From contig NC_043018.1 of assembly GCF_006345805.1 (NCBI RefSeq), forward strand, positions 744,001 to 808,000: a stretch of DNA of 64,000 nucleotides, read 5' to 3'. A program made the position numbers and the translations under genes. The DNA comes from Octopus sinensis (taxonomy: Eukaryota). This document shows, piece by piece, positions 26,170-57,840 of this stretch (its first letter is position 1; each line of letters begins with the position of its first letter). The notes below the pieces were generated by a model, which was given only the letters and a program-made list of their open reading frames with translations, did no database searches and was not told the DNA's origin.

Positions 26170-26977
26170 ACATAGCGAGATCAGCGTTCAATGCATAGCG
26201 TTCCTAAACTAAAGTACTTAGTTGTTTTTTGCGAGCAGTGTTTCGCTTGCACTGCGTTCCGTTTTAAAAAATAAATCAAAACTCGAATAAAGTAAGAACA
26301 TGTGCTAAGAAATCCATGTACATAGATAAAAAAAGTTTATACTATAATAAAGAAGAAAATTTATAATAAAATAATTTGCAATTAACTTTGCTCATAATTT
26401 AAGATATTCATACAATCTGCCCATTGTAATGCTACCCTAATGACAATCCGTAGTAATTAATTGCAATTATTTTAAATTCAAAGCGAATATGATCAACTAA
26501 GGAAGAACAACACGAAACATTTCTAGACATTTCTTTACCATATTTCTTATTAAACAGGTGAATACGATAAAAATTATTTCGAAACCTTATATCTTCAAAT
26601 CACGGGAAGCTGATACCAGTGTAACTGAAATACTTAGATCGACGATGGCGCAGGTACATAAGTTCGGTGCAATGGTTGATTGAGTGAGAGACATTCTTGT
26701 GCTGAATAGTAGTAATATACAAGTTGGATATCAGGATGCAGGATAATGGAGGACAACACATAATGATGACAAAAATGAGAGGCTGGTGTACATGAGGATC
26801 ATTTTAGCATTATGTCTGACTTAAGGAAATCGTCTATTCGACATATTTGAGTGCTGACGTCTATTGATATCAGATCTATATTTTAATTCATCAAGATACT
26901 TTTCTCTCTTTCCCTGTCTGTCTCTGTCTGTCTGACTCTATCTATTTATCTATGTATCTGCGTATATATATATATAT

Positions 26978-27168
26978 AGGGAGAGTTTACGAAAAAAAAG
27001 GACGTAGACAGGTGGTGTACAAAACAAACAGATGTATTAGTTTAACGCTCAGGAAAAGAAAAAAGTATGTTACGTATCGAGCCTACGCTCTTCTACAGAA
27101 AGGGATACAGAAAGAAGCAACGAGAGAAACAAGGAGAGAAAGAAAGCAGAGAAAAAATCTATCATGGC

Positions 27169-46683: not shown

Positions 46684-46968
46684 TTGTGTGTGTGTGTTGC
46701 GTGTGTGTATTATATATATATATATATAAACTATATATATATATATATATATACATGCATAAATAGATAGATATATAGATAGAAACACAGATAGATAGAG
46801 AGAAAGAGAGGGAGAGAGATTTAACTGTTAAACCGAAAGATATTAATTTACAGTAAGAAGAAGATACAACATGGGCATTATATTGGGGTTGCAATTGGAA
46901 CGGTTACTAATGGCTACGGTAGAAACATGTGTAGGACTACGTAAAGATGTATATATACATATATATAT

Positions 46969-47105
46969 ATTAATTTATTTTATAGAAGGAGCTTCTACAG
47001 GACTAGAATTGTTTCATTCAAATGAAATCATCGGGCTTCCTGATGATTTCATTTGAATGAAACAGTTCTAGTCCTGTAGAAGCTCCTTCTATAAGATAAA
47101 TTAAT
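46969..47105. repeat. Near-perfect 64-bp inverted repeat (fold-back) with a 9-nt spacer
   Basis: Arms are 46969-47032 and 47042-47105. There are only two differences, and both give G.U pairs on the + strand. Confidence 0.97.
47033..47085 (+). ncRNA. Type I hammerhead ribozyme motif overlapping the fold-back
   Basis: The sequence reads GGGCTTC-CTGATGA-T-TTC-ATTT-GAA-T-GAA-ACAG-TTCTAGTC-CTGT-A-GAAGCTC. It has a 7-bp stem I, a 4-bp stem III and a GUA triplet (cleavage after 47078). About 85 nt of tail lead into (TA)n at 47170. Confidence 0.75.
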
Positions 47106-47169
47106 TTACTCTGCTATGTATTGAGTACCTTATTTACTGTGGTTAACGCCGACTCAACCCGGGACCTAC

Positions 47170-47210
<41 letters not shown>

Positions 47211-47739: not shown

Positions 47740-47972
47740 GGCGGCGAGCTGGCAGAAACGTTAGCACGCCGGGCGAAATGCGTAACTGTACTTCGTCTGC
47801 CGCTACGTACTGAGTTCAAATTCCGCCGAGCTTGACTTTGCCTTTCATCCTTTCGGGGTCGATAAATTAAGTACCAGTTATGCACTGGAGTCGATGTAAT
47901 CGACTTAATCCGTTTGTCTGTCCTTTTTTGTCCTCTCTGTGTTTAGCCCCCTGTGGGTAGTAAAGAAATAGG
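47740..47972 (+). mobile_element. Family M SINE, full length, 11-bp TSD
   Basis: The TSD TATTCTGTATA is at 47729-47739 and 47973-47983. Confidence 0.93.
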
Positions 47973-49157
47973 TATTCTGTATATTTCTTTGCACGAGTAT
48001 GTGTGCATGAAGTATATGGGTGCAATATTATGGATGCATAGAATATAGGCTCATATCTTGAGATTACTGTCTTACCCTTGCCGCATATGTTCATTACTTC
48101 TAAGCATAATAGATTAATCACAATAATTAACCAAAGTTGCAGACGTACATATATTTATATTTGTACATCAATTCATACAGGCATAGATCTAGACGAATCT
48201 GTCTCCATATATATATTCGATATATATTTCATTGTATGTCTTATGTTTTCCGCGTTTGAGAATGTGTTCCGAGATATATAAAGCGAATAGACATACCAGA
48301 AACTAAAAATAATAATAAACTTTTACCTTGATCGTATATCTCAACAGTTAATCACTGCTTTGTGTTTCTTCTATTTTAAAGACATGAATATTTATGAACA
48401 GAAATAAAAATACAGCTATACAAACGTACTTAATTCTTTGATTTTTTTTCTCGAAAATGTATATATACAACATTGAAACGTTTTATTTGTTAAGATCTTC
48501 GAGCCCTGTTTGATTGTGAGTGACTATAAATGCTTACACAAGCACACACACAGACGCACACAGATATAAACGTCTATGTATATATATATATATATATCTA
48601 TATATATATGTATATAAGCAAATTTATTTATTTATCTATTTCTTTTAACGTCTCAGTGTGTAAGTACGTATGTATACACGTTTGTATTTATGACACCCAG
48701 TCTCTTCGATTCCCAGTTTTATAGGATAGACCTACTGTGTGACTGCCTTTGATAGTTTTACGAAAAGTTTCTCTAGTAAATACAATATATTGTATATACC
48801 CTTCTATAAATATAAATGCATATACAATCATATATATTATACACTGTCTTAGAGAGATTGTTTTAAGTAATACCTAAGAAATGTTTTAAAGCAATGACCT
48901 CAAAAACGAAATGTTTGTCTATGACTAGCGGAGTGTATCACTTTCCATTGGAGTATAAAACTGTGCGCATTTGCAAAGTATATATTTACATATATAGCTA
49001 TATACGTGTGTATATAAGTGTATGTACGTGCATAAGTGTGTGCGAGTGTGCATATGTATTCATACAAACATATATGTAAATACATATTTCTATATATATA
49101 CATATATATTTTGTCATACACATGTGTATGTCATAAAAATGACTACATATAAACATG

Positions 49158-56865: not shown

Positions 56866-57591
56866 AATATCTCTCTATTTTTTGAGATGCATAATCTTTG
56901 AAGAACATTTTTTATTATACAATAATTTTGTTTGCAAGAGAATGTAGCACCGCGACTATTTAACATTATTTCAATAAAACGAATCACACAAACAATAATG
57001 TAATTTTGGTTCTCCTTTCCTGATCTAGAAGATATTTGAATAAAGATGTTTCAGTTAAGAAAATACCATAATTTAACCATACATCGTATATCTTCAATGA
57101 TACGACGTGTCTAGATGTATCTTTAAAGTGGTAGATTACTTGAACACTTTCAGTGTTTCTCATTTGATGTTGGTAGTAAATAGTATTATAGTTGTTGTGG
57201 TTGCTGTTAGACCTATATTTCCTGTTCTCGAGCACGCTTATCATGAAGGGTGCTTACGCCGGTCGTTTTTCGAAATAGATTGTATAAAGGTGAGATTATT
57301 TTAAATATACATGTGTGTTCCCATATATAAAAGTCAAGGTGCGATTTTGTGAAAGATATGTAACAACTGTTTCTAGCAGAATTATCATGTTGAAGATACA
57401 TTTTGGTAAAAGAGATTCACTCGGTCTAAAAACAAAACGAATCCAAATAAAAAAAAATATATTTCAATTGTGGGAATAATTATTATTAGTAGAATTTATT
57501 TTAATAGTCTATTACATTAAATTACTTACAAATCAAGCAAGCAGCCAATTGAGTTATATTACTCTTTTCTAATTCAATGTATATATATATA

Positions 57592-57632
<41 letters not shown>

Positions 57633-57633
<1 letters not shown>

Positions 57634-57840
57634 CGGGAAGCTTTATGAAAATAAACAAAAGACGAAGGCAGGTGGAATACAAACAAACAATTGTATTAGT
57701 ATGGCGCTCAGGAATATAAATAAAACAAGTCTTTTACGTTTCGAGCCTACGCTCTTCAACAGAAAGATACACAGAAAAGAAACAAAGAAAGAAACAAGGA
57801 GAGAAAAAAAATGCGTGCAGAGGCTAGCGAATCAACATAT
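57633..57840 (-). mobile_element. (TA)n-embedded Penelope-like pLTR fragment carrying a minimal hammerhead
   Basis: It is flanked by (AT)n on both sides and is homologous to 26978-27170. Confidence 0.7.
57730..57767 (-). ncRNA. Minimal type I hammerhead-like motif with a variant core
   Basis: The sequence reads TCTTT-CTGTTGA-A-GAGC-GTAG-GCTC-GAAA-CG-TA-AAAGA. It has a 5-bp stem I, a 4-bp stem II and a palindromic ACGT stem III. Core position A6 is replaced by U. Confidence 0.65.

Follow-up and report, generated by a model that had tools for sequence, protein, structure and literature searches.

A hammerhead motif inside a 64-bp fold-back of Octopus sinensis belongs to a head-to-head stub of a young Penelope-like element, probably made from two cDNAs primed on the element's RNA

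In the stretch of the Octopus sinensis genome that we analyzed (64,000 nt of contig NC_043018.1, positions 744,001 to 808,000; hereafter the window), a hammerhead motif is directly preceded by an inverted copy of most of its own sequence. Is this fold-back an RNA device, or is it a trace of the way in which a mobile element inserts? The initial annotation allowed for both, describing a minimal insertion of a Penelope-like element (PLE) whose hairpin could hold the ribozyme in one of two exclusive folds, feed small-RNA pathways or be edited by ADAR.

The inverted copy adjoining the 5′ side of the ribozyme and the duplex that it forms are real. The arms, 46969–47032 and 47042–47105, pair over 64 bp with 62 Watson-Crick and two G·U pairs (46979/47095 and 47009/47065), and three extra pairs (a G·U pair at 47033/47041, then two G-C pairs) lengthen the stem to up to 67 bp and leave a 3-nt loop at 47036–47038. 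The region 46960–47180 folds with −120.2 kcal/mol (z = −19.25), and none of 200 shuffled sequences was equally stable. Using an element numbering in which q equals the window position minus 47032, the locus is a 205-nt head-to-head stub of a young PLE inserted in a TA microsatellite. The left target flank, a (TA)n microsatellite at 46950–46970 whose junction is blurred by AT microhomology, leads into a short, tail-less arm on the minus strand (46969–47032, inverted q73 to q10) with one private change at 47009. A plus-strand hinge at 47033–47035 follows, with GG at 47033–34 in place of element q1–q2, and then a long arm on the plus strand (47035–47173, q3–q141), whose last 4 nt are common with the TA target and which differs from a sister copy at two positions, 47095 and 47148. 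Only this arm carries the ‘tail’ (q74–q141, 47106–47173, plus strand) in the sense used for such elements in the available text of PMC8557442, PMC3846280 and PMC11167929. The right flank (47170–47192) is (TA)n as well, and no target-site duplication stands out from the TA repeats. The short arm is likely a cDNA primed from the left DNA end at an inner start site, and the long arm likely one primed from the right DNA end at an outer start site. Elsewhere in the window, 47740–47975 is a dispersed repeat that we take to be a tRNA-derived SINE, and two of the window ORFs gave no Pfam match.

A 28-nt word from the ribozyme has 6,337 exact matches in the whole 2.7-Gb genome. The right arm is a young repeat: the 40 of 648 candidates that were scored show 99% identity, and 20 of the 40 have an adjacent inverted arm. 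Long copies tie the pLTR to an ORF, and a protein search then led to two full units, L066 and L075, each consisting of a pLTR, an ORF with RT and GIY-YIG motifs, a UTR of about 3 kb rich in microsatellites, and a second pLTR. With the 5′ pLTR of L075, the window arm shares 98.6% identity. In L067 and L070, the YRDD and YIG motifs lie in one frame; L066 and L075 gave no Pfam hit at E ≤ 0.05, and the assignment to the endonuclease-bearing PLEs is made from motifs. With a parent of pLTR-ORF-pLTR layout and copies that combine an inverted, 5′-truncated pLTR with a one-sided tail, the family has the hallmarks of such elements, and the proposal of a minimal PLE insertion is borne out by the parent units and by the anatomy of the copies.

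The parent ORF appears, by its motifs, to match the Hydra clade of C-terminal EN+ PLEs as described in the available text of Craig et al. (2021, PMC8557442). Both have DKT (in place of DKG; here in L075, L067, and L068), a CxCX5C linker, no CCHH within GIY-YIG, and CxxC and CxH near the conserved E and N (here in L067, L068, and L070), and both share the (TA)n target and the hammerhead. The family differs in having RWR (L075) rather than RWK, which is found in the sister family L170; in containing YGFKS, although GxKF/Y is described as not conserved in that clade; and in its unit of about 6.2 kb, lengthened by the 3-kb microsatellite UTR, whereas members of the clade are generally shorter than 3 kb (PMC8557442). 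This 3′ UTR (L075:4600–8200, L066:5050–8400) is mostly (TA)/(CA)/(TG) microsatellite-like, i.e., of the kind into which the element itself inserts. RT frames in L039 and L046 and a GIY-YIG frame in L042 were rejected as the parent, as they look like other nearby PLE families. A second young PLE family (L170–L175, about 48% identity) has open frames of up to 727 aa with RWK and YRDD, and a simple motif scan near six of its ORFs did not find a type I hammerhead matching the window motif. Another TA-flanked repeat, at 57577–57838 and 26939–27145 of the window, also occurs in the UTR of L066 and in L039 and L044 and is possibly the end of a different PLE family.

How typical the window copy is can be judged from an unselected sample, the 64 loci behind the first 100 listed matches of the ribozyme word, which cover the first 39 Mb of C1. 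These loci contain 51 inverted pairs, 48 of which join a long arm (to about q141) to a short one (q55–80); three are complex, and neither two long nor two short arms were ever combined. In 32 of the 51, both arms start at q−3 or later, and scaling this minimal class to the 6,337 matches gives an extrapolated figure of about 2,000 hairpins like that of the window genome-wide. A second set, biased because it was selected by hinge, comprises 79 fold-backs (a few of them local duplicates), 50 with a perfect hinge (nine of them from a one-subfamily sample) and 29 of the window type; here, 71 are long plus short and none is long plus long. Some members of the family have a more complex history: at L118, L122, L010, and L107, newer insertions have hit the TA repeats beside older ones, and complete fold-back units are in some cases duplicated in tandem.

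The hinge varies, with more than 20 different forms in the unselected sample, and the commonest single one is a perfect palindrome. A unique inversion point, with which the initial annotation had associated an inert by-product, is not what we found: 240 copies have the palindromic hinge and 29 that of the window, and in 28 of the latter A takes the place of the window's G at 47033. This G may be a cap-derived or untemplated addition, or a point change. Of the 29, 14 have a left-hand and 15 a right-hand tail, and four subfamilies are represented. Since the same hinge is found in different subfamilies and with the tail on either side, shared hinges arise anew and reflect the mode of insertion, not selection on the hairpin. 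Five of about ten long arms in the unselected samples stop within q66–73, at the priming site of the short arm; given that the stretch is AT-rich, this agreement is no more than suggestive.

The two arms of a pair appear to come from the same template or source, since loop II is mostly identical in both and private unit junctions recur in both halves of arrays. Loop II agrees between the arms in 72 of the 79 hinge-selected fold-backs, and the other seven have a private change or a gap; no pair among the 79 mixes the three common subfamilies, and L010, outside the set, mixes two loop II types. L295 (G000:C16:42874300-42878600) and L296 (G000:C9:87419500-87423500) are inverted, head-to-head tandem arrays with units of 249 nt and 422 nt, respectively, that include a TATA box and the hammerhead. 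Each has one private unit junction that is present in both halves (8 and 5 times in L295, 2 and 3 times in L296) and in no other fetched locus, as would be expected if the RNA template was circular or was read several times over. The two ends of L296 lie at q141 and q69; L295 continues on its left beyond the stretch examined. In L033 (1240–2040), both arms share an internal deletion joining the linker region to the 3′ UTR, and thus a deleted, non-autonomous RNA was the template.

The 5′ ends of the arms point to where this template began. They pile up at q1–q10 in a sample enriched for hinge-selected loci, and the same zone dominates the unselected sample. After removal of junctions explained by the partner arm, a preceding G is seen at 20 of the 23 starts at q2/q3 and at 4 of the 42 later ones, a comparison in which some control rows are point changes and in which only C or G is possible at q2 by construction. 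Among 40 direct joins to (AT)n, 28 start at q2, and the preceding letter is G in 19, C in six, A in two, and T in one. From the target one would expect A, and from the element A, T or C; neither accounts for G. Starts at q3 joined directly to (AT)n have this G in 2 of 12 cases. Upstream, TATAAA stands exactly 29 nt before q2 in 123 of 132 pLTRs, and the letters of the spacer vary among subfamilies. A distance of 29 nt is the usual TATA-box spacing, and an extra 5′ G is a known mark of a reverse-transcribed cap. From the extra G and the fixed spacing, we infer a capped RNA that would start at q2, the first base of stem I; the G could instead be an untemplated addition at any defined RNA end. 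A splice acceptor at q2–3, as in Drosophila Penelope, was rejected, as the joined sequences share no upstream exon.

The same ends indicate that the templates were mostly uncleaved, as they are in vitro, because there is no pile-up of 5′ ends at the ribozyme cut site (54 vs. 39 matches; 17 of 30 vs. 13 of 30 true ends, with stem I microhomology explaining 7 of the 17). Cleaved RNA is thereby rejected as the template. Although the shape of these insertions is already published, the cap and TATA evidence, with arms that stop at the first base of the ribozyme behind a G, is new here; the literature searched, mostly without subscription papers, contained no report of twin priming or of a cap-derived G for PLEs. 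Five further loci (L265, L277, L292, L298, and L300) contain short direct tandems in which a downstream unit from about q2 is joined to q164–q237 of an upstream unit, and these junctions look as if synthesis, on reaching the RNA 5′ end, had switched template to an AC-rich site close to where the ORF begins.

How did one template give rise to two opposed arms? For Adineta Penelope elements, self-priming has been proposed from the palindromes at the junctions (PMC3846280): one cDNA, or an antisense RNA, would snap back at a palindrome and prime itself, so that the second arm copies the first. This route would directly explain the identity of the arms and agrees with the palindromic nature of the commonest hinge, shared by 240 copies, as well as with the nearly symmetric hinges in 15 of 35 close pairs, where the 5′ ends of the two arms lie within 2 nt of each other. 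It requires, however, that the short arm be nested within the long one. Among the 35 close pairs, 13 have a short arm that extends 5′ of the long one by 3 nt or more and seven show the opposite, the alignment ends being uncertain by a few nt. In L239, L095, and L031, the arms differ by hundreds of bases with the short arm again further 5′ (in L239, the short arm extends to −1307 and the long arm starts from q71), and in L040, L050, L097, and L108 the arms do not overlap at all. In L006, L105, and L332, each arm begins behind an extra G and 1–5 nt separate the two, a zero-loop hinge is more easily made between two strands than within one, and the extra G marks the 5′ end of a sense RNA as the template. 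Self-priming is thus refuted as the sole route, and we regard it as an unlikely general explanation, although snap-back may account for some of the symmetric hinges. Because either arm may reach further 5′, the genomic data instead appear to favor two first-strand cDNAs.

Our preferred reading, which we hold to be probably correct, is that both cut DNA ends primed reverse transcription at two fixed sites on a capped, uncleaved sense RNA, and that the resulting cDNAs were joined near the RNA 5′ end. The endonuclease would cut both strands of (TA)n, after which one DNA end would prime at about q137–141 and the other at about q64–77. With transcription starting at q2, cDNAs primed at such 5′-proximal sites would reach the end of the template after 70–140 nt, the cap being copied into an extra G. 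The ends of the two cDNAs, both of the same sense, could then be joined through short self-complementary words near q1–q10 or by end joining, and the hairpin would be a by-product. The evidence for this scheme consists throughout of genomic end products, and several considerations weigh against it. The 5′ ends within 2 nt in 15 of 35 close pairs are also what snap-back gives; the identity of the arms could partly come from one dominant source locus or from arm-to-arm conversion, as the mixed L010 illustrates; and the start sites show no strand difference in vitro in the available text of PMC11167929, a result that does not in itself predict the strict rule of one arm of each kind.

The scheme resembles LINE-1 twin priming, in which a 5′ inversion results when the RNA is primed internally from the second target end. 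There, the arms barely overlap; here, overlap is usual, as the two cDNAs extend to a common 5′ end, and the second start site does not vary. A close biochemical parallel is the Poseidon protein of Anolis, which in vitro cuts and extends both strands, uses two RT start sites, does not need ribozyme cleavage, and is predicted to be a dimer (Frangieh et al., 2024, PMC11167929). As far as the available text describes it, Poseidon shares with the octopus family two internal RT start sites bounding the tail, an AT-rich target, an uncleaved RNA template, the cutting and extension of both strands, and a protein-dependent hammerhead. Its start sites are inside the ORF, have no homology to the target, and show no strand bias, whereas those described here are upstream of the first ATG, have 2–4 nt in common with the target, and are used strictly one of each (PMC11167929). 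The insertion units of endonuclease-bearing PLEs, as described in the parts of PMC8557442, PMC3846280, and PMC2377424 that were available, likewise have head-to-head arms, palindromic junctions, a tail on one end, a microsatellite target, a pLTR hammerhead, and partial tandems. The published tail is 30–40 nt long compared with about 70 nt here, and about half of our sampled loci are minimal stubs with arms ending at the 5′ foot of the ribozyme. Those sources left the mechanism of the inverted ends open between self-priming on antisense RNA and endonuclease-mediated resolution, whereas the present data favor two first-strand cDNAs from a capped sense RNA.

We then considered whether the hairpin and the hammerhead could act as an RNA switch. 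The type I hammerhead motif of the pLTR (47033–47085, plus strand), drawn by hand, comprises stem I (47033–39/47079–85), CUGAUGA (47040–46), stem II (47048–50/47055–57, with a U·U closing pair), GAAA (47059–62), and stem III (47062–65/47074–77), with a predicted cut after GUA at 47078. It thus contains CUGANGA, GAAA, UH, and stems I and III in type I order. The Rfam hammerhead families gave no match in the window, either at the gathering score or at E ≤ 10, and the purine-pyrimidine pair G10.1-C11.1, which opens stem II and is called highly conserved in hammerheads in the available text of PMC4209133, is absent: the window and the 14 commonest of the listed variants have the U·U pair instead. 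PLE minimal hammerheads and metazoan retrozymes have the same type I topology in the pLTR, and pairs of opposite-strand hammerhead motifs have been noted before (PMC4209133, PMC7229834, bioRxiv 10.64898/2026.07.22.740005, as far as available). In contrast to the minimal hammerheads described there, the motif here lacks G10.1-C11.1 and has a 4-bp stem III with an 8-nt loop, closer to fungal and protist variants; unlike non-LTR retrozymes, the window locus is a single stub, and tandem hammerhead units occur in L295 and L296. The motif nevertheless appears to be constrained, since all five shared variant sites within q2–q53 fall in N7, loop II or loop III, i.e., in 13 free positions of 52 (p ≈ 5e-4). 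As to compensatory changes, the stems are invariant among subfamilies.

Predicted folding speaks against a switch in the window copy. As the initial annotation proposed, the hairpin would, if transcribed, sequester the catalytic core, with the probability of stems I and III falling to 0.0 when the left arm is present. The second state on which the switch depends does not follow: even without the left arm, the hammerhead is not the favored predicted fold. The exact hammerhead structure has a probability of 0.003 in 47033–47088, and stem I (0.8–0.9) and stem III (about 0.4) are predicted only in RNAs that extend no further than 47088. With the 3′ end at 47092 or beyond, a built-in hairpin on the plus strand (47077–47091, pairing probability 0.93–0.95), which covers the cleavage site and the 3′ strand of stem I, takes over. 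The same takeover is predicted for the natural parent pLTR, which suggests that the ribozyme of the parent would be restrained as well, as fits PLE hammerheads that act with protein assistance. Nor does the window copy favor a transcript beginning near 47033, as had been suggested, since no TATA box lies upstream to set an RNA start at about 47034, and the copy has no evident start of its own at 47033–47035. The switch idea is therefore weak, and the copy is most likely inert unless read through.

The claim that the hairpin might be edited by ADAR has one suggestive genomic trace in the family on its side and no general signal. Across 587 arm alignments, from which flank duplicates were removed although some may remain, A>G and T>C changes are equally frequent (4.38 vs. 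4.36 per 1000). One locus, L132 (1377–1626; G000:C1:76372138), has seven A>G changes among the 31 A of one arm, plus an eighth in the other arm that affects the same DNA strand; the cluster has a chance probability of about 1e-7 after correction. ADAR prefers U or A as the 5′ neighbor, and the 5′ neighbor in L132 is always U or A (UAG three times, and UAU, UAA, UAC, AAG, and AAC once each). The second arm of this locus is unusually long, extending to q115, and a pattern search for further hyper-edited copies found G at both q38 and q46 in L132 only. L132 looks like a copy of a hyper-edited family RNA, and it weakly supports the idea of family double-stranded RNA, without bearing on the window locus. 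An ADAR origin of the three G·U pairs of the window itself was rejected: two would be A>G on the plus strand (47033, 47095) and one C>T (47009), which is too few, and the family shows no excess. Rfam miRNA models produced only E-value hits to the hairpin shape in the window, below gathering scores.

Against this background, it is quite improbable, in our assessment, that the hairpin is a functional RNA, either as a switch with the ribozyme or as a selected source of siRNA or miRNA that silences the family. The duplex is long and nearly perfect, read-through of the estimated 2,000 or so hairpins would yield much family double-stranded RNA, the eight A>G changes of L132 share one strand and ADAR-like contexts, and small RNAs are produced from Penelope copies of Adineta (PMC3846280, in the text available). 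Yet nothing sets the window copy apart from its sisters, it has no upstream TATA box, its predicted fold blocks the hammerhead with or without the left arm, the 587 arms show A>G and T>C at equal rates, and the Rfam miRNA hits, far below gathering scores, reflect hairpin shape only. Passive double-stranded RNA from the family as a whole is compatible with the two-cDNA explanation. The exact hinges common to 240 and 29 copies might suggest that a master fold-back RNA was mobilized whole as a non-autonomous hairpin element and that the hinge was inherited, and L132 may itself copy an edited hairpin RNA. This is very improbable, since identical hinges turn up in three to four subfamilies, with a left-hand or a right-hand tail, and since the unselected sample has more than 20 hinges. 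A still more remote option is that the palindrome is a long-read or assembly artefact, fold-back chimeras being a known artefact of long reads. The arms differ at two positions, end at fixed sites of the element, and have unrelated flanks, and contigs of the independent run X15 show hinge-type insertions at 47032–47034 and fold-back loose ends at 47047. Contigs of X15 and of runs X1, X2, and X3, which we guess to be RNA, cover family sequence from 47034 on; those of X1–X3 do not extend over the left arm or its flank, a gap that speaks neither for nor against the fold-back.

Joining these strands leads to a broader proposal that is tentative and, to our mind, falls somewhat short of an even chance as a whole. 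RNA of the family would start at the first base of the hammerhead; a dimeric RT-endonuclease would use a single capped, uncleaved RNA as template for the two ends of a TA break, priming at two fixed sites, so that the cDNAs meet at the cap; the ribozyme would be a cap-removing timer held off by its built-in hairpin; and the roughly 2,000 hairpins would constitute a self-made pool of double-stranded RNA that is edited by ADAR and sometimes copied back into the genome.

The window locus itself is an ordinary stub of a known kind of element, and the evidence at the family level is of moderate interest for the mechanism of integration, since the origin of the inverted ends and the one-sided tail of PLEs is still described as open in the available text of PMC8557442 and PMC3846280. 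The young, high-copy octopus family provides exact coordinates for this problem: a putative RNA start at the first base of the ribozyme, two priming sites, a one-tail rule, and apparently uncleaved templates. It also predicts about 2,000 near-perfect hairpins of 60–70 bp in one animal genome, which would form a substrate set for studies of ADAR and small RNAs.
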